Of a stretch of 64,000 bases of DNA, positions 19,299 to 53,976 are shown in pieces; position 1 is the stretch's first letter; every line of letters begins with the position of its first letter. The position numbers and the translations under genes were made by a program. The notes under the pieces were generated by a model. It searched no databases. It was not told the origin of the DNA and saw only the letters and a list, made by a program, of their open reading frames with translations. Origin of the DNA: a virus; IMG/VR virus record IMGVR_UViG_3300045988_076196, positions 1 through 64,000 of that record, one strand, 5' to 3'.

Positions 19299-19652
19299 TT
19301 AATTTTTTCTTAGTATTTTAGCGTCAATCAGCTCTTTCTGATTAAGCCATTCCAAATCATTTTCAATATCTATCATTGCACGATTCGTTTGTTCGTCAAT
19401 CAAAAACCTATCCTTCTCATATTCGATAGTAACTCGAATTGCGCCACATTGACCAACTAATCTTGGGTCTGTCCCATAAATATAACGTAATATATTCATG
19501 TCAAATGTAATCAAAGCGTCATGCAGTTTAACATTTGTCACTACATAAGCAATATCAATTTTGTGAGCAACTTGTAATTTGAAATTCTGCGTTATAAATT
19601 CACCAAACGTCATATCACAACCACACCTTCTGATCCTGTTGAGTACATACAA
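19299..19652 (-). CDS. hypothetical protein (117 aa)
   Basis: operon strand. Confidence 0.55.
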   Translation of the reverse strand: MYVLNRIRRCGCDMTFGEFITQNFKLQVAHKIDIAYVVTNVKLHDALITFDMNILRYIYGTDPRLVGQCGAIRVTIEYEKDRFLIDEQTNRAMIDIENDLEWLNQKELIDAKILRKN

Positions 19653-21015
19653 CCCTACTTGATTTACCTTGTTTGATTAACTCATCTTGTAGGGTATTGG
19701 CAAATTCTACTTTATTTGAAAATTCACTATGTACTAAGCACAGTTTATCATAATCTATATTCTGATAATATTGCATAAGTTGGTTATAATTAGCATGAGA
19801 TGAAAACGTATTCAAACAATATATCTGAGCATTGTTCTGAATCATCTCACCATCAAGCATGATTTCTTTTGCGCCATGCTTGATTTCATATGCAAGCGTA
19901 TTAGGACTAGCATAGCCAGAGAATAGCACGGCATTGTTGTTATTGGGAAGAATGTATTTAAGATGTGCCAAAGCCCGCCCAGCATTGAGCATACCGCTAC
20001 TAGCCACTATAATGGCTCGTTCATTTGATTGCTGAATAGTTTGGCTTTCTTCCCATGATTCAATTAGCCGCAAATTGAGTTTATCTTCATAATCTAGTTG
20101 CTCTGACCATGCTCTATAGATACGACAGGCAAGCGGAGAATCAAGATAAACAGGAATCATCTGTCCGTCAATCTTTCGCTCTGTGGCTCGTGTGCGCCAT
20201 AGCACATCAAGAATGTCCTCTACACGCTGTAAGCTAAAAGCTGGCATTAAGATGCGATTATATTGGTATATAGCAGCATTGATAATCTGCTCATCATACC
20301 ATCGGTCTTTCTTCATACTATAGCATCTAGCCGGGTCACTATAAGTACATTCGCCAACCACAACATTACATCTTGGCAATGACTCGATTGGCGGTACAGA
20401 TACGCTCTTAGCCTCTGTATTAAAATCGCCCGTAAAGCCAATTCGCTTTATACTATACCCCTGTTTGATTTCTAACATTGCTTGAGCCGAATGAATGATA
20501 TGTCCGGCATGATAATACGTCAGCTTTGCACCGCCTACAATGGCCGTAGGAACACCAAACGGAACTTCGACAAGCCATTGCATCACCTTGTCAATATCAG
20601 CCTCAGTAGCTAATGGCGGCGCTTTGATACCATGTTTATTCTGCATCTTTAAGCTATCCTGCGCCATGATTTTAATACAATCATCCATCATTATCTTAAG
20701 GATGGGGATTGAGCCTTGAGGGATATAGATATATGCTTGCATGCCCATAGCAACAGCGGCAAGCAACCCAAGACAATGGTCTGCATGTAGATGAGTAATG
20801 ATAACGCCGTGCACCGTCTTTGGCTTTATTTTCCTCATCTGTTCACGGTTAGCGCGATAATCAGCTACTAGGTTATTAGTCTGAATTAGACCCATATCAA
20901 CAGCTAATTTGATATTGTCGAATCGAACAATCGTGCATGAACCGGTTACAGATGCGGCATTACCACCAATGAAATGCAGATATGGCTTAGATGTGCCAGA
21001 TGATTTAGCTGGCAT
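19615..21015 (-). CDS. metallo-beta-lactamase / beta-CASP family nuclease
   Basis: HLHADH motif (ITHLHADHCLG); about 466 aa, consistent with MBL + beta-CASP; ATG 21015 preceded by GAGGAGG. Confidence 0.8.
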   Translation of the reverse strand: MPAKSSGTSKPYLHFIGGNAASVTGSCTIVRFDNIKLAVDMGLIQTNNLVADYRANREQMRKIKPKTVHGVIITHLHADHCLGLLAAVAMGMQAYIYIPQGSIPILKIMMDDCIKIMAQDSLKMQNKHGIKAPPLATEADIDKVMQWLVEVPFGVPTAIVGGAKLTYYHAGHIIHSAQAMLEIKQGYSIKRIGFTGDFNTEAKSVSVPPIESLPRCNVVVGECTYSDPARCYSMKKDRWYDEQIINAAIYQYNRILMPAFSLQRVEDILDVLWRTRATERKIDGQMIPVYLDSPLACRIYRAWSEQLDYEDKLNLRLIESWEESQTIQQSNERAIIVASSGMLNAGRALAHLKYILPNNNNAVLFSGYASPNTLAYEIKHGAKEIMLDGEMIQNNAQIYCLNTFSSHANYNQLMQYYQNIDYDKLCLVHSEFSNKVEFANTLQDELIKQGKSSRVVCTQQDQKVWL

Positions 21016-21325
21016 TAGCCGCCTCCTCATCCTTTTTACCTGTTGGTAAATATGCCCATGCCACAACGTCATCCCAATCACCATAATTATCAAGATAATA
21101 TAAGTTATATCCAGCATATCCATCTAGCATACAAGTATCTTGCGATACATCGCCGCTTTTACCCAACACTAGAATGTCTCTATTCTCATCCGGTAATTCA
21201 CAGTCAAACATATAAAGAGGGTATTCACATTCAGATAAACCCCATTCAGCAAATCCTTCAAGTTCTTCCTCAGTGGGCGGTCTGGTTACAACCTCATGCC
21301 ATACAATTTTTTCAATCCATTCCAT
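21005..21325 (-). CDS. hypothetical acidic protein (106 aa)
   Basis: operon strand. Confidence 0.6.
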   Translation of the reverse strand: MEWIEKIVWHEVVTRPPTEEELEGFAEWGLSECEYPLYMFDCELPDENRDILVLGKSGDVSQDTCMLDGYAGYNLYYLDNYGDWDDVVAWAYLPTGKKDEEAANAS

Positions 21326-24184: not shown

Positions 24185-24460
24185 TTACTCATTGATTTCT
24201 GCCTTCAGTGTGCTTGTTGGCTTAAACGTCAGAGCATACTTGGCAGGAACTTCAATGGTTTCACCAGTCTGCGGATTACGAGCAGTACGAGCATCGCGTA
24301 GCTTAGTTGTGAACTTGCCAAAACCATGAATCACTACATCTTCATGCTGGACTAGGCTATGTCTAATATAGTCAATAAACGTGTCTACGATTTCAGTTGT
24401 GTCCTTGACTGTATTCTCTGTGCTATCTGCTACAAACTTGATTAGTTCCTTCTTTGTCAT
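24185..24460 (-). CDS. HU/IHF-family (DNABII) DNA-binding protein
   Basis: 91 aa; GFGKF...R.ARNPQTGE.I.VPA...F motif pattern. Confidence 0.9.
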   Translation of the reverse strand: MTKKELIKFVADSTENTVKDTTEIVDTFIDYIRHSLVQHEDVVIHGFGKFTTKLRDARTARNPQTGETIEVPAKYALTFKPTSTLKAEINE

Positions 24461-24607
24461 AAATTCCTTTTAATTTCCTTTCGATTTCTAATAAAATTTT
24501 ATTAAAACAAGTCGCAATGTTCATGCGCATATTGACTTGATATATGGGGTTATTGTTCCACTATCAACTACTTACAGGGTCCTCTTACCTAAGCCCTATA
24601 TTATTTT

Positions 24608-24668
24608 GCGCCAAATTGGTTTCGTCACGACGCTATGAGACTTTAACCATTTTACTCTCTCTTTGTCT
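24608..24668 (-). ncRNA. structured RNA motif, copy A of a tandem pair
   Basis: minus sense CAGACAAAGAG, stem GAGA/TCTC, AUAG, then hairpin GCGUCG/UGGCGC with loop UGACGAAACCAAUU. Confidence 0.55.
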
Positions 24669-24730
24669 GGCACTCGTCTACCAGCTCGACACGTCATTTA
24701 TCCTTGGACTTAATGCCGATTTAGACTACT

Positions 24731-24790
24731 GTGCGGAATTGGTTTCGTCACCGCACTATGAGCCTTTGACCAAGCCTGCTCTTTGTCTGT
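24731..24790 (-). ncRNA. structured RNA motif, copy B of a tandem pair
   Basis: same architecture with compensated stems GAGC/GCUC and GUGCGG/CCGCAC and an identical 14-nt loop. Confidence 0.55.
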
Positions 24791-24859
24791 TTCCCGAATT
24801 ATTGAACAGCAGTCAACGTTGTGTGTTACGCGCGATATTCACCAACGATTTTTAGAATT

Positions 24860-24932
24860 GCCACACTCCTTACAAACCACTGTTAGCGTGAAGTTTACAG
24901 TTGCGCAACCATCTTAAAATCAAGAGTGTGGC
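24860..24932 (-). ncRNA. helix-closed RNA domain in an ORF-free transcript
   Basis: 9-bp long-range helix GCCACACUC/GAGUGUGGC enclosing about 55 nt. Confidence 0.4.
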
Positions 24933-25119
24933 GGCGTTACCTCATAGCATCAGGTGGTCAACCATCAGCTATTCAGCAACTAGCATTTTAACCTATAAAC
25001 TAGACTATCCGCAGTGACCAAATCTTGAGGATTGTCTTACAAAGCTAGGATTTTCAGCTTTTCCTCCAGACGGCTATCAAGTGTGCTTACAACGCTAGTA
25101 GAGGCATGATAGACGTTTT

Positions 25120-25192
25120 TGACCGTGGTAGGATTCGAACCTACATCTCAACCGCTATGAACGGAGAGTATTACCAATTAGGAGACGCGGCC
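25120..25192 (-). tRNA. tRNA-like element, anticodon CAU, degenerate D and anticodon stems
   Basis: acceptor 6/7 pairs, perfect T arm GUAGG-UUCGAAU-CCUAC, U8/A14/G18G19 present, CAU at positions 34-36. D stem (UCCU/AUAC) does not pair, anticodon stem has only 3 bp, and no CCA is encoded. Confidence 0.45.
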
Positions 25193-25243
25193 ATATGGAA
25201 ATGGGCTTTAAGCATCAACCCATTAGAAGCATTGTAAAGTTAT

Positions 25244-25801
25244 TTAATCAATATATTCCCATCTACATCCATGATAACTTTTTTTGCCATTCTTTTGCAT
25301 AGTTACTAACGATATGAGATTTTGGACATGCCTTGCTCTGTTATCGTTATTTGGCGAAAAATATCTAGCAGCATCTGCAAGAGAGTCAAATTCATAGATT
25401 TTTTCGTTTGTTTTCTTGTCATATCCGACAACTCTCTTGGCTTTTGTATTATATTTCCCAGTGTTACAGTATCCTAAAACGTTTCTTGCGTGGTCTGTGT
25501 TTTCTTTAGGAGTGACCCATTCAAGATTTTCTGCTCGATTGTCTGTTTTTACCCCATTGATATGGTTTACTTGATTTTTGTTTGTCGGGTCTGGATTTGA
25601 AACAAAAGTTTTTGCTATTACACTGTGAACCGACATATATTTTGGAATGCCATTCATACATAGTCCGATTATGCAATACCCACGATGATTTATAGAAAAT
25701 TTTAATGGTTTACCAGTTTTACTATAAACAACTCCGTCCGTATCACATTCATAACATTCGTACCCTTTGATTGCTATTGGTTTTCTTTGATAACTCATCA
25801 T
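25244..25801 (-). CDS. HNH homing endonuclease (NUMOD4 + HNH_3 type)
   Basis: YECDTDGVVYS N-terminal module; VNHINGVKTDNRAENLEWVTPKEN. Confidence 0.8.
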   Translation of the reverse strand: MMSYQRKPIAIKGYECYECDTDGVVYSKTGKPLKFSINHRGYCIIGLCMNGIPKYMSVHSVIAKTFVSNPDPTNKNQVNHINGVKTDNRAENLEWVTPKENTDHARNVLGYCNTGKYNTKAKRVVGYDKKTNEKIYEFDSLADAARYFSPNNDNRARHVQNLISLVTMQKNGKKSYHGCRWEYID

Positions 25802-25895
25802 ACACTTCTCCTTAAATGTTATTATAAATATGGCTCAATGAAGGAGCATTGTTATCTCGCTAGTTAATTACTCTAACGCTACCCATATTTATTTA

Positions 25896-25980
25896 TGGTC
25901 TGCGTGGTCGGACTCCAACCGACAAGGCTTACGCCGCCGCATTTTGAGTGCGGTATGTTTAGCAATTTCATCACACGCAG
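25896..25980 (-). tRNA. tRNA-Leu(CAA), class II, with a swapped C19:G56 elbow pair
   Basis: perfect acceptor CUGCGUG/CACGCAG, A73, encoded CCA; anticodon arm CCGCA-CUCAAAA-UGCGG; long variable arm GGC-GUAA-GCC; T loop UUGGAGU. Confidence 0.75.
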
Positions 25981-26047
25981 ATATCTATTTCAAGCCGACT
26001 TCCTGCCTCATAGCTATTTCTAGCATCGGCTCGTGAATGATGTTTAC

Positions 26048-26221
26048 ATAATATCCTTATATCACCTTTGCCGTTATGTTTTTGCATGGATACTAACGTG
26101 ACACGATTGGGCGCGACCCCAATTCTCTAGTCTGTATCTGCCGCTTCTCAAACTCTGCGCAGACCCCAGTGCAGGCGTGATATAGATTTGACGGTTATCT
26201 TCAAATCCGGTCGGATATTAT
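26048..26221 (-). ncRNA. structured RNA domain, copy 1 (174 nt)
   Basis: P1 AUAAUAUCC/GGAUAUUAU, P2 GAUUUGA-AGAUAACCG-UCAAAUC, P3 UAUAUCAC/GUGAUAUA (minus sense). Confidence 0.6.
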
Positions 26222-26365
26222 ATTGTTTGTCAATCCCAATCCCTTTCATTATGCCGAACAGATTGACCGGTGCGCCCTACTTGGCACTACGGTCTTTCGC
26301 ACGACTGCGACCCGCTTTTATGCTTATCTCATTTGTCTCACGCACGTTCCCAATGATCTTAGTAA

Positions 26366-26495
26366 ATAATATCCTTATACCAACTTCAATCTGCTAGTAG
26401 CATCTCATTATCCGTTCTTCTCCAACTCCAGGTGGGCATATGAGTAAGCGTGGTATAGGTCTAACGGTGATCTTTAGACCGCGGTCGGATATTAT
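26366..26495 (-). ncRNA. structured RNA domain, copy 2 (130 nt)
   Basis: same P1; P2 GGUCUAA-AGAUCACCG-UUAGACC; P3 UAUACC/GGUAUA; compensatory changes relative to copy 1. Confidence 0.6.
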
Positions 26496-26604
26496 GATGG
26501 CTGTTCATCTCACTCCATTTACTACTGCTCCTGTAATCCCGGCTTTATTGCTTCGCGATTGCAACGTACCTGAGCTTCGTAGCACCACCATCTTTACATT
26601 CTCA

Positions 26605-26633
26605 ATTATACCATACTTGATTTTATTTGTCAA
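26605..26633 (-). promoter_or_regulatory. sigma70-type promoter driving the ncRNA/tRNA-Leu transcript
   Basis: TTGACA 26633..26628, 17 nt, TATAAT 26610..26605. Confidence 0.7.
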
Positions 26634-26770
26634 GCATTATTTTTACAATCAGCATCCCAACAGCAACGCCAGCCACAAATAAACCTAAACAAGCAAATAA
26701 AATAATCATACACTAATAATCAATAAATTCCTCTTAACTCTTTACCCTACAACTTATACTACTTAATTGA

Positions 26771-27010
26771 CTAATCCTGTTTTTCTTCATTATTAGTCAA
26801 TGATTTCTTTGCTAGACGCGCTGATTTGAGCCGTTCTGCCGCAGCTTGTTTCTGTTCGTCAGTCATTTCTCTTTTTCTGAACGGGTTGTTACCCATGCGG
26901 AACGGATATAGCTCACAGTCATGGATGACGCAATTTTTTACTTCATAAGCTGAGCCACAGCAACAATCCAAACAGTGCTGGCGGATGGCCTTTAGTGGAG
27001 ATTTTTCCAT
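26771..27010 (-). CDS. small zinc-finger protein (79 aa)
   Basis: AAGAGG RBS before ATG 27010; CLDCCCGS...C..HDC motif. Confidence 0.6.
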   Translation of the reverse strand: MEKSPLKAIRQHCLDCCCGSAYEVKNCVIHDCELYPFRMGNNPFRKREMTDEQKQAAAERLKSARLAKKSLTNNEEKQD

Positions 27011-27011
27011 A

Positions 27012-27350
27012 TTACTTAAACCTCTTGGCAATCGCCTTATCAACCATTTCTTCAAAATACTTGACCACTTGAGCATCTGCATTCTTCAGCTCTGAAAAAG
27101 ACGGCGCGAGTGACTTGATTTCTTGCTTCTTGAGAATTGCGTCGCTCACCTTCTGTACTACCTTATCAATAATCTCAGCTTTGTTTTCTTTAACAATCTG
27201 ACGTGCTTCTTCTTCTGTTAAGCTGTATTTGCCTTCTGTTAATAGATTATCTGTAATTGATTTCACTATTCCATCTCTTATATCTTGCTTAAAATCATAA
27301 GAGCCATACTCTTCGTACCAGCTGTCATCAATATCAAAATATAGTCGCAT
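27012..27350 (-). CDS. hypothetical protein (112 aa)
   Basis: GAGGTG RBS; immediately downstream of the tRNA at 27382..27474. Confidence 0.6.
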   Translation of the reverse strand: MRLYFDIDDSWYEEYGSYDFKQDIRDGIVKSITDNLLTEGKYSLTEEEARQIVKENKAEIIDKVVQKVSDAILKKQEIKSLAPSFSELKNADAQVVKYFEEMVDKAIAKRFK

Positions 27351-27381
27351 ATTATCACCTCATTAGATTTGGATTTTATCA

Positions 27382-27474
27382 TGGTACTGGCGCTCGGACT
27401 CGAACCGAGATTTTGCGGCAATCGACCACTAAACTGTGTATAGGACAGCTGGCTTACCATTAACCGACACCAGC
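27382..27474 (-). tRNA. class II tRNA with the non-canonical anticodon loop CCUAUAC
   Basis: acceptor GCUGGUG/CGCCAGU (2 G.U pairs), A73, encoded CCA; D arm GGUU-AAUGGUA-AGCC; T arm CUCGG-UUCGAGU-CCGAG; about 23-nt variable arm; C at position 33. Confidence 0.6.
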
Positions 27475-27573
27475 ATATTTGAGCCTTTTACCGTCATGCT
27501 CAGGACTATATTTTCAGGAGGTTCACAATGAAGAACTGTAATTGAGATTGCCCAATCTCTCAACCACATCTGT

Positions 27574-27602
27574 ATTATACCATAAGGAATACTGTTTGTC
27601 AA
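27574..27602 (-). promoter_or_regulatory. sigma70-type promoter (about 100-nt leader, then tRNA)
   Basis: TTGACA 27602..27597, 17 nt, TATAAT 27579..27574. Confidence 0.7.
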
Positions 27603-52248: not shown

Positions 52249-52398
52249 TATTTGCCTATGAAGCGGTAGCTATGTTGGTGTGTTGCCGTGGAGGCACTAT
52301 TAGGGTTGTGTGGAATCCAAGTTCCAACTGAGGCTTAATCAAAAAAAGTTGAAAATAAAAACACTCAAAAAATATAAAACAAGGAAAGGAGGTTGAAG

Positions 52399-53976
52399 AT
52401 GCCAAAAAATAATGAAGATGTGAAGCTGTCTAAAAATGACCTTCAGGATATTATTGATTTTAGTGCAGGTCTGATGGCGGTTGATAATTTTTACTCACCA
52501 TTTCTGAGCAACCAGCTATTGACCAATCTAAACAATAATCCTCGTCTACCTAATGCAGAGGCGGTAAAAAAGGCGCTCAATGATTATAAGAATAGCGGCG
52601 CCGATTTACAGGGTTTTGTAGAATTTGCATCAGCGTTTGATATGATTTTCAAGCGCACTTTATATTCTTATGCAAATGCGCTATCTTTCGACCTTCAGAT
52701 AACGTGCAAAAATGCATATACAAAGGGCGACTATGAATCAGAGGAATATAAGAAAGACCGGCAGACAGTAGATAATTTCTTGACCAATTTTGATTACAAG
52801 AAAGAATTTTATAATGTTCTGCTAAATGTCTTAAAGCGCGACTCATATTTTACTTGGTTTAGAAAGACTAAGAGCGGTAATCGCGGCAAGATGAAGTATG
52901 CTCTACAAATTATGCCACAAGATTATTGTATGCTTACGGGGTACTTTGAAAAAGGGTTGCTGTGGTCTTTTAATGTACTGTATTTTATGCAACCGGGCGT
53001 AGATATTGAGGGATTTGACCCAAGTCTCAAAAAGACATATCTTGATGCGATTGAAAATGCTGAGTTAAATTACAAGCCGTCTGCGCCACTCGATAAACGT
53101 AATGGTAGTTATGCTCTATGGGCAGATGTATCACCACTTAATGGTGCTTATGCTTGGAAATTTTCTACAGATAACTTTGCTAACAATCCATTCTTATCGC
53201 CATATGTAGCAAATGTTTTACGTAGTGATGAGGTTGGAGAATTACAGTATAACAAAGATCTTATCTCTGCGGCTGGTATTCTAGCTGGTGAGATTAGATT
53301 ATTTGATTCAGCCAAGTCAGGCACGAAGGCGAATCAGTTCGCCATTGATCCGAAAACGCTTGGTGCATTTATGCAAAAGGCGGCTAATGGACTAAAGAAT
53401 GCTGCCAAACTAGCAGCTATACCACTTGAGAATATTAAATATTTCCAATTTGAGGATAAGAACCCAAATAGCTATACAAATGAGCTAACTACAACAGCTG
53501 GTATTGGTACTGGCATTAGCCGTGTTATCTATTCATCCGATAAGATGAGTAATGCTGAACTAGAGGCGGCGCTTAATGAGGTCTATCAGACCATGAAGCC
53601 AATGTATGCTCAGTTCAATAATTTCCTTGATTTCTATGTGAATCAAATGACAAGCAAATATAAGTTTAAGTTTGAGTTTGTTGGTTCTAACTATCAATTT
53701 GAGCGCGATGCTAGATTTGATAAGATGATGAAAATGGCTGATAAGGGGCTTGTACTCAATTCATCTGCATGGGCTAGTGCTGTTGGTATGAACCCTGTCA
53801 CATTTGATAGGATGCTTGCTGAGAGTAAATATACTGGATGGATTGATAAGTATTCGACCATGATGCTTAACGCTAATACATCGTCTTACAAAGATAATAA
53901 GGGCGGGCGTGAACGCAAGAACGCTAGAGATTTGACCGATTCAGGCGAAGCAAGCCGAGAAACATTAGAGGAATGA
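52399..53976 (+). CDS. portal protein (by position and size)
   Basis: 525 aa directly after terL; AAGGAAAGGAGG RBS 6 nt before ATG 52399. Confidence 0.6.
   Translation: MPKNNEDVKLSKNDLQDIIDFSAGLMAVDNFYSPFLSNQLLTNLNNNPRLPNAEAVKKALNDYKNSGADLQGFVEFASAFDMIFKRTLYSYANALSFDLQITCKNAYTKGDYESEEYKKDRQTVDNFLTNFDYKKEFYNVLLNVLKRDSYFTWFRKTKSGNRGKMKYALQIMPQDYCMLTGYFEKGLLWSFNVLYFMQPGVDIEGFDPSLKKTYLDAIENAELNYKPSAPLDKRNGSYALWADVSPLNGAYAWKFSTDNFANNPFLSPYVANVLRSDEVGELQYNKDLISAAGILAGEIRLFDSAKSGTKANQFAIDPKTLGAFMQKAANGLKNAAKLAAIPLENIKYFQFEDKNPNSYTNELTTTAGIGTGISRVIYSSDKMSNAELEAALNEVYQTMKPMYAQFNNFLDFYVNQMTSKYKFKFEFVGSNYQFERDARFDKMMKMADKGLVLNSSAWASAVGMNPVTFDRMLAESKYTGWIDKYSTMMLNANTSSYKDNKGGRERKNARDLTDSGEASRETLEE

Follow-up and report, generated by a model that had tools for sequence, protein, structure and literature searches.

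A previously uncatalogued structured-RNA domain carried as an exchangeable cassette in the tRNA-linked non-coding array of a human-gut phage clade

What kind of RNA fills the space between a perfect promoter and a tRNA-Leu gene in a phage of the human gut, and what might it do there? The question is raised by IMG/VR record IMGVR_UViG_3300045988_076196, of which we analyzed positions 1 to 64,000 (hereafter, the window: the whole stretch of 64,000 nucleotides [nt]). The source phage belongs to an uncultured human-gut clade with a genome of ca. 90 kb. An original prediction, made from the letters of the window, described two paralogous RNA domains at 26366..26495 and 26048..26221, and their sequences and coordinates are as described there. 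In the current study, we show that these domains, here called copies A and B, are paralogous members of one previously uncatalogued structured-RNA family, and that the domain is one exchangeable cassette of a hypervariable non-coding array. The array is read from the minus strand, and the promoter and tRNAs share this strand with the domain. Its first segment is bounded as follows.

26605..26633, minus strand: promoter TTGACA-17-TATAAT with TG extension, a perfect sigma-70/sigma-A promoter (12/12 matches)
25896..25980, minus strand: tRNA-Leu(CAA), called by ARAGORN and by the Rfam tRNA model (48.1 bits)

Transcription probably starts near 26598, as judged from the promoter, and the leader that would follow extends for ca. 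620 nt to tRNA-Leu without a credible open reading frame (ORF), as originally predicted. No terminator-like site was found between the promoter (26633-26605) and tRNA-Leu (25980-25896), and cotranscription of the leader with tRNA-Leu is plausible. The same promoter is kept upstream of the array in relatives, and the order of promoter, modules, a conserved hairpin (M5, described below) and tRNA is maintained in ca. 70 arrays. The two copies, with their helices (P) and loops (L), are laid out as follows, all on the minus strand.

26366..26495: copy A, 130 nt, a minimal version without Pc and Pd (covariance model R1, 91.8 bits, E = 1.6e-25)
26495-26487 / 26374-26366: P1 of copy A
26480-26474 / 26464-26458: P2 of copy A
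26473-26465: loop L2 of copy A, AGAUCACCG
26457-26451 / 26382-26376: P3 of copy A
26444-26440 / 26408-26404: P4 of copy A
26428-26419: loop Lb of copy A, GAGUUGGAGA
26048..26221: copy B, 174 nt, the full version (R1, 216 bits)
26221-26213 / 26056-26048: P1 of copy B
26212-26208: junction GACCG of copy B
26207-26201 / 26191-26185: P2 of copy B
26200-26192: loop L2 of copy B, AGAUAACCG
26184-26177 / 26065-26058: P3 of copy B
26169-26167 / 26134-26132: P4 of copy B
26164-26157 / 26144-26136: Pb of copy B, with a bulged G
26156-26145: loop of copy B, AGAGUUUGAGAA
26122-26107: hairpin Pc of copy B
26098-26072: hairpin Pd of copy B

Both copies are closed by the same 9-bp helix, as had been claimed: a repeat search recovered ATAATATCC/GGATATTAT as perfect inverted repeats (26048-26056/26213-26221 and 26366-26374/26487-26495), together with the 5′ and 3′ ends common to A and B as direct repeats. 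The motif TCCGACCG-N7-9-AGATNACCG occurs exactly twice in the window, with none expected from 100 shuffles, and similarity between the copies reaches inside P3, where both carry GAGUUKGAGAAG, AUA, ACUAG and AUUG. The compensatory change between them, first described as full, exists but is partial. In P2, whose stem was said to differ entirely between the copies, 3/7 pairs are changed on both sides and 4/7 are identical; in P3, a pairwise alignment shows one compensatory pair (C-G to U-A) plus a difference in length. RNAfold, run on each copy separately, gives P1, P2 and P3 in both. It may also be noted that 26487-26496 and 26047-26056 form a 10-nt perfect complement (the 5′ strand of P1 in A with the 3′ strand of P1 in B), and a super-helix around A, B and the intervening module M3 is a possible alternative to two separate P1 helices.

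Homologues of the domain were reached by several routes. A motif scan of IMG/VR yielded 17 true loci among chance matches, and the small protein gene upstream of the array (26771-27082) led to 12 syntenic IMG/VR loci. In assemblies of ENA, Logan and JGI, the same protein forms 125 clusters, several of which contain from hundreds up to 1,243 sequences, and more distant contigs were fetched through them. A loop-based pattern then found at least 43 more copies in metagenome contigs, plus five in IMG/VR. In total, ca. 50 distinct sequences of the domain, 130 to 205 nt long, were obtained from ca. 75 related gut-phage contig fragments, whose human-gut origin is shown by the contig names; P1, P2 and P3 are preserved in them. 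R1 matches both window copies (216 and 91.8 bits), with a further fifty matches at E <= 1e-25. The sequences fall into the following types (contigs and loci are given as L numbers).

Type A: the window and IMGVR_UViG_3300045988_080153 only (loci L059 and L075)
Types B1 and B2: most contigs
Type C: L174, L072, L305, L236 and L347
Type D: L285
Type E: L284 and L355

Thus, the duplication first described is present in the window but is rare, copy A being confined to these two records. Beyond this clade, little was found. An IMG/VR scan with the pattern GACCG...AGATNACCG...TATA gave nothing outside the known clade (nine extra matches lacked the hairpin), blastn against GenBank phages matched the tRNA only, and a scan of bacterial and archaeal genomes (185,579 species), which requires exact loop motifs, gave 60 pattern matches, of which nhmmer confirmed none. 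R1 found nothing above noise in arrays without the domain (L090, L093, L163 and L164) or in Enterocloster phage PMBT24. Phages of Enterocloster bolteae are the nearest cultured relatives of the clade.

The domain has seven helices rather than the three first described. P1, P2 and P3 form an outer three-way junction, inside which P4, Pb, Pc and Pd make up a second junction. P4 is short; the Pb stem has a conserved bulged G and a 12-nt loop containing GAGUUKGAGA; Pc is enlarged in type E, and Pc and Pd are absent from copy A. In a plain MAFFT alignment, 94.9% of the cells are paired and 29/46 pairs show changes on both sides, values reached by 0/500 shuffles; slid controls gave 31 to 42% paired and 3 to 8 covarying pairs. 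An alignment of 51 distinct sequences fitted to R1, which is biased towards structure by construction, gave 96.4% paired and both-side changes in 30/46 pairs (again 0/500 shuffles), with slid controls at 29 to 43% paired and 3 to 10 covarying pairs. These figures bear out the original claim of selection on RNA structure. In the fitted alignment, P2 occurs in three sequence versions, each 100% paired, and all 3/3 pairs of P4 covary; P4, Pb and Pd each occur in three to five sequence versions. When RNAfold was run on one representative per type, P1 and P2 appeared in 6/6 and P3 in 5/6, with P3 replaced by an alternative pairing in L285. The following unpaired nucleotides are near-invariant: CCGAC(CG), AGAUNACCG, GAGUUKGAGA, AUA, UAGAG, GUGUUCC, AAAAACA and AAAGG. 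Two further pairings were tried and rejected. A pseudoknot between the GACCG junction and the Pc loop GGUCG is broken in types C to E and in L094, and the pairing of a longer P3, with GCC/GGC added, breaks down in L007, L053 and L095.

More than 100 cells of the alignment hold strand-specific G-U pairs, among them a pair at the foot of Pb that is G-U throughout, and on the other strand these would be A-C mismatches; the functional strand is therefore the minus strand. Nor is the domain coding. The sequence types have no open frame in common, and the type lengths (136, 172, 177 to 182 and 204 nt) differ by non-multiples of three, which argues against translation; in relatives, the one ORF of B that begins with ATG (26249-26148) lacks this start codon. 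A small ORF was rejected on these grounds. It is therefore very improbable, in our opinion, that the element is not an RNA at all, be it a small coding region or a DNA-level element, such as a small mobile element bounded by inverted repeats of 9 bp or a site of recombination or homing. In favor of a DNA element are the perfect 9-bp inverted repeats at the ends of the cassette, its presence or absence as a unit, and the homing endonuclease and tyrosine recombinase next to it; on the other hand, the internal helices covary, strand-specific G-U pairs are many, and A and B lack a flanking target-site duplication. The last of these points, with covariation at the RNA level, also led us to reject an element resembling a miniature inverted-repeat transposable element.

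Does the fold belong to a known class? Rfam 15 was searched with the whole window at gathering score, with 25600-27600 at E <= 10, with 16 related loci and with the syntenic region of PMBT24. Over 25600-27600, the search returned two tRNAs only, and all of the scans together returned only tRNAs, drum (elsewhere in the window), RAGATH-33 and a subthreshold abiF match. The covariance models of ROOL and GOLLD, which had been suggested as the class to which the domain might belong if it was not something new, matched neither the window nor the locus at E <= 10 nor the related loci. They also differ in size, at ca. 580 and 800 nt for ROOL and GOLLD against 130 to 205 nt for the domain, and the leader, as modules are gained and lost, ranges from ca. 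230 to 620 nt; the location near tRNAs is shared. From the absence of any Rfam match we conclude that this is a new family rather than a member of GOLLD or ROOL. Both window copies have the characters by which we recognize this family, namely, the P1-P2-P3 junction with CCGAC, L2 with AGAUNACCG, and a Pb capped by GAGUUKGAGA.

Other known RNAs were likewise rejected, which agrees with the earlier statement that the fold is of no recognized class, has no hammerhead core and is not a tRNA. ARAGORN and Rfam call tRNAs only at 25896-25980 and 27382-27474. The Rfam cores of known self-cleaving ribozymes (hammerhead, twister, twister-sister, pistol, hatchet and hepatitis delta virus-like) were unmatched. 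Y RNA and YrlA-like RNAs had no match at E <= 10, and none of the eight neighboring ORFs that were scanned against Pfam carries a TROVE (Ro) domain, the ORFs of the window not having been comprehensively screened. The domain is not a T-box, given that there is no Rfam match, that the leader has no terminator and that the downstream gene is a tRNA; the T-box-like UUG specifier in Lb is constant regardless of the identity of the next tRNA. With respect to type III antitoxins and abiF-motif RNAs, there is no abiF match in the window and the domain has no tandem short repeats (in 24400-26700, the only tandem repeat is an 11-nt AT-rich pair at 24460-24488); a host-encoded counterpart beside a toxin gene was not seen either, as the exact-loop scan of the 185,579 species genomes found no copy of the domain. 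The RAGATH-33 model (RF03102) matches a different module in L007 and L033, and not the window. CRISPR-repeat mimicry by Pc or M3 was considered and dropped, the apparent resemblance being limited to 7 to 9 nt.

ROOL and GOLLD are structured non-coding RNAs of unknown function that are often found near tRNAs in phages and prophages of Firmicutes and are possibly cotranscribed with them (PMC5737381), and both form RNA-only multimers, as homo-oligomers (PMC12286853). Could the present domain be a self-assembling ornate RNA of this kind, its loops mediating RNA-RNA contacts within a multimeric particle? The genomic habit, beside tRNAs in Firmicutes-type phages, is the same (PMC5737381, PMC12286853), and the 10-bp complement between the P1 strands of A and B would suit such contacts. 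Moreover, the two main loops vary only jointly: in copy A alone, L2 position 5 changes from A to C and Lb position 6 from U to G. The two positions could be a tertiary pair, although the change is a single event, and it fits a 3-bp loop-loop contact (UAA/UUG versus UCA/UGG). Set against this are the unmatched ROOL and GOLLD models, the much smaller size, the single event behind the loop-loop covariation, and the fact that modules come and go independently, which fits poorly with a single large and fixed architecture. We therefore consider self-assembly improbable.

The domain lies inside 25981-26598, the extent first proposed, but the array of modules continues to ca. 24500. The modules and inserted elements of the window, and two elements of related arrays, are as follows.

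26494..26595, minus strand: M1, with closing helix GAUGRUGG/CCAUCAU, a conserved core and an interchangeable inner hairpin (25 distinct homologues)
26227..26351, minus strand: M3, with helices GUGCG/CGCAC and GUCAAUC/GAUUGAC, a variable inner hairpin and repeated GGGAUUGGGAUUGAC (31 distinct homologues)
25988..26039, minus strand: M5, a conserved hairpin (30 distinct homologues, 2 compensatory pairs)
25244..25801, minus strand: HNH_3/NUMOD1 homing-endonuclease ORF, inserted in the array right after tRNA-Leu and absent here in most relatives
25120..25192, minus strand: degenerate tRNA(CAU)-like element (Rfam tRNA model, 23.6 bits; missed by ARAGORN)
24504..25119, minus strand: rest of the non-coding array, ca. 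600 nt, with further conserved modules (blocks shared with L090, L094, L095 and L285)
L007 2373-2485 and L033 9484-9596, minus strand: RAGATH-33 (139.9 bits), upstream of M3 and B
L095 5436-5479, plus strand: abiF-like hairpin with CAAGCCU...GCUCAAA features (26.8 bits against a cut-off of 37)

In these arrays, the promoter is followed by M1, (A), M3, B and, in some cases, an insert of 290 nt, after which come M5 and a tRNA. Modules are gained or lost as units. B lies 46 to ca. 470 nt from the promoter (in L010, B follows the promoter directly), and the gap from the upstream protein gene to the HU gene ranges from 250 nt without an array (L164) to ca. 1.7 kb. M1, M3 and M5 all retain conserved cores. 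M1 is present or absent among phages, and its inner hairpin is swapped for unrelated hairpins of other lengths; M3 has compensatory changes in four pairs, and its inner stem varies in length. The borders of the domain cassette are the ends of P1. L090 has M1, M3, M5 and tRNA-Leu(CAA) and no domain; in type E, three tRNAs precede the domain, which begins right after the encoded CCA of tRNA-Leu. M5 lies ca. 25 nt 5′ of the first tRNA, whichever tRNA that is, in all B-, C- and D-type arrays that reach far enough. The first tRNA is mostly Leu(CAA) and otherwise Leu (UAG, UAA or CAG), Ile, Val, Phe, Met or Gly, and M5 and the loops of B stay constant as it changes.

This arrangement bears directly on what is in our view an unlikely explanation, that the domain is a cis-acting leader of the phage tRNA operon, in which domain and M5 shape the folding, processing or stability of the pre-tRNA (for example, by blocking 5′-exonucleolytic decay or by presenting the tRNA to RNase P). 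In favor of this explanation, domain and tRNA invariably share a strand, 5/6 types place the domain 5′ of the first tRNA within a constant order that closes with M5 and tRNA, and the stretch from promoter to tRNA has no terminator. However, M5 and tRNA-Leu persist in arrays without the domain (L090), the loops of the domain are invariant while the first tRNA differs among arrays, the type E domain is downstream of three tRNAs, and the 290-nt insert can part B from M5.

Instead, our working interpretation, to which we give about an even chance, is that the domain is part of an abundant early leader RNA which is released by tRNA processing and acts in trans. Host RNA polymerase would transcribe the array strongly and early, and a cut by RNase P at the 5′ end of the first tRNA would free the leader as a discrete RNA of ca. 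230 to 620 nt; in the type E relatives, cleavage at the 3′ end of the tRNA would free the domain likewise. M1 on the 5′ side and M5 on the 3′ side might guard the ends of the released RNA. The domain itself would act in trans as a pre-folded protein ligand, via the invariant loops CCGAC, AGAUNACCG and GAGUUKGAGA, and its role would be host takeover or counterdefense, not tRNA production. Release by tRNA processing is suggested by the position of M5 (ca. 25 nt 5′ of the first tRNA) and by the start of type E just after CCA. A role in trans is preferred over tRNA production because the tRNA occurs without the domain, because the tRNA varies while the domain is constant, and because the domain can sit on either side of the tRNAs. 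Host takeover or counterdefense is preferred because the cassette is accessory and the array is shared with the abiF-like hairpin. In Clostridioides difficile, the AbiF toxin is neutralized by an abiF-motif RNA (PMC12373285), and the hairpin of L095 (E = 0.016 in a 681-nt search), of which the window has a more diverged counterpart near 25115-25070, may be a pseudo-antitoxin. AcrIC5-like and Apyc1-like genes lie near the arrays of relatives, and together with the hypervariable locus and the abiF-like hairpin they suggest a counterdefense role, by way of guilt by association.

Several points weigh against what we propose, the fold included. The folding energies are unremarkable compared with those of shuffles (z = -1.9 and -1.4 for the two copies and -1.3 for the whole leader), and thermodynamic stability alone proves nothing; the case for the fold is made by covariation in the homologues and not by folding energy. 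The number of independent types is small (A, B1, B2, C, D and E), with an effective sequence number of 1.46, and the covarying cells therefore represent a handful of evolutionary events. Even so, we hold it very likely that the fold exists. As to function, the abiF-like match is below the gathering score (26.8 versus 37 bits) and belongs to another module; the absence of host-genome copies from the exact-loop scan argues against simple mimicry of a host RNA; and the fixed order of M1, (A), M3, B, M5 and tRNA could equally fit a role in cis. Finally, the array was found in no cultured phage, as judged from blastn against GenBank and from PMBT24, whose syntenic region upstream of the recombinase has no tRNA, no array, no Rfam match and no R1 match; consequently, there is no cultured model.

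How the array would be cut apart raises a further alternative, namely, that the domain is a new ribozyme, self-cleaving or otherwise catalytic, which separates the modules of the polycistronic array from one another. Catalytic RNAs typically combine covarying helices with invariant nucleotides in junctions and loops, and RAGATH-33, which occurs in related arrays, is a motif class defined by its association with genes found alongside twister and hammerhead ribozymes; in addition, M1, A and M3 are not flanked by tRNAs and would therefore need other processing. Yet the ribozyme families of Rfam 15 were unmatched at E <= 10, neither the window nor the 16 related loci gave a hammerhead or twister, we can name no candidate cleavage site, and host RNases or a phage-encoded nuclease of the beta-CASP/RMMBL type (19615-21123) could do the cutting instead. 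A ribozyme thus seems to us as improbable as self-assembly. The nuclease just mentioned, a metallo-beta-lactamase/beta-CASP/RMMBL protein (RNase J/CPSF-like), is encoded on the minus strand, ca. 3.4 kb downstream from where the array ends. It is a candidate for processing the array, and relatives without the domain (L093 and L164) encode it too.

A broader and more tentative idea concerns the whole locus. This may be an RNA cassette island, a hypervariable site at which a common clade of gut phages collects and exchanges independently folding RNA modules, punctuated by tRNAs and released by them, which would serve as ligands or inhibitors of host proteins. The modules so far would be the A/B domain, M1, M3, M5, RAGATH-33, the abiF-like hairpin and several more; their targets might be host defense or RNA-metabolism proteins, which would make the locus an RNA counterpart of protein anti-defense islands. 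If this tentative idea is correct, the A/B domain would be a new class of RNA effector, or a new ribozyme.

Among known systems, ROOL (RF03087) and GOLLD (RF01998) resemble the present domain as tRNA-adjacent phage RNAs with conserved loops and many helices. They differ in that each is one fixed large RNA (ca. 580 and 800 nt), whereas the domain is a cassette of 130 to 205 nt in a modular array; their sequence and structure models do not match it. The tRNA cluster of phage T4 encodes small stable non-tRNA RNAs, species 1 and 2 (rnaC and rnaD), which we take to be comparable to the present domain. Species 1 and 2 are made from tRNA precursor transcripts by tRNA-processing enzymes, and their function is unknown; phage and host are unrelated to those considered here, and the present locus has many more module types, which are exchangeable. 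In Escherichia coli, tRNA maturation yields a functional by-product from the transcript of a tRNA operon, the RNA 3′ETS-leuZ. Such spacer RNAs of tRNA precursors are base-pairing sponges, short and weakly structured; the proposed release during tRNA maturation is similar, but the present domain is a large, rigidly conserved fold. RAGATH-33 (RF03102), another orphan structured motif, is found in these arrays as well, 5′ of B in L007 and L033, with another fold and sequence and a model that is unmatched in the window at E <= 10. RCd22, the abiF-motif antitoxin RNA of C. difficile, is a structured RNA that neutralizes a defense toxin by direct binding (PMC12373285). With phage decoys of the pseudo-ToxI type, it offers a model for a phage-borne structured RNA acting in trans; in contrast, the present domain has neither an abiF motif nor tandem short repeats, and the exact-loop scan of 185,579 genomes found no host-genome counterpart.

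Orphan structured RNAs tied to phage tRNAs (GOLLD, ROOL and the T4 stable RNAs) have gone without a functional explanation for decades. The locus contributes a new fold with good support, and with it a natural "deletion series" (A without Pc and Pd, E with an enlarged Pc, and arrays without the domain); it also shows that such RNAs can be exchangeable cassettes within one predicted early transcript. New phage RNA motifs are not rare, but a seven-helix fold in an exchangeable multimodule array of a common gut phage is unusual. Given that the clusters of the upstream protein have hundreds to 1,243 members, the clade is common in human-gut metagenomes and the RNA is likely abundant in this ecosystem, which is of medical relevance. 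Were the counterdefense role to prove correct, the RNA-based anti-defense repertoire would be widened beyond CRISPR-repeat mimics and pseudo-antitoxins.

The remainder of the locus may be described briefly. In L174, a gene for a 185-residue HNH_3 product was also called. The counterparts of 25120..25192 in relatives are called tRNA-Met(cat). The last part of the array, 24504..25119, has no Rfam match among its modules and no ORF of substance, and it ends in a terminator-like hairpin (24539-24508) with a U-run, just before the HU gene (24460-24185); beyond the HU gene lie the tyrosine recombinase and then the beta-CASP/RMMBL nuclease. A distant relative (L093 4217-5920) has a 1.7-kb array at the same locus with an entirely different non-coding sequence, in which three tRNAs (Leu, Gln and Met) are the sole Rfam matches.

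Upstream, the minus strand carries four perfect TTGACA-17-TATAAT promoters with TG extension within 1.5 kb (28064-28036, 27853-27825, 27602-27574 and 26633-26605), and the region looks like an early or host-takeover region. The third of these serves a tRNA-Ile(UAU) gene (27382-27474, minus strand) through a leader of ca. 95 nt. This tRNA is 93 nt long, with an extra arm of ca. 20 nt that is unusual for an Ile tRNA, and relatives have either the same long form (90 to 93 nt) or a 75-nt form. Elsewhere in the window, a drum RNA (RF02958; 52253-52369, plus strand; 49.7 bits against a gathering score of 43) follows a 560-amino-acid ORF of unknown function and lies directly 5′ of the portal gene (52393-53976), whose product is 45% identical to the portals of E. 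bolteae phages of ca. 100 kb.

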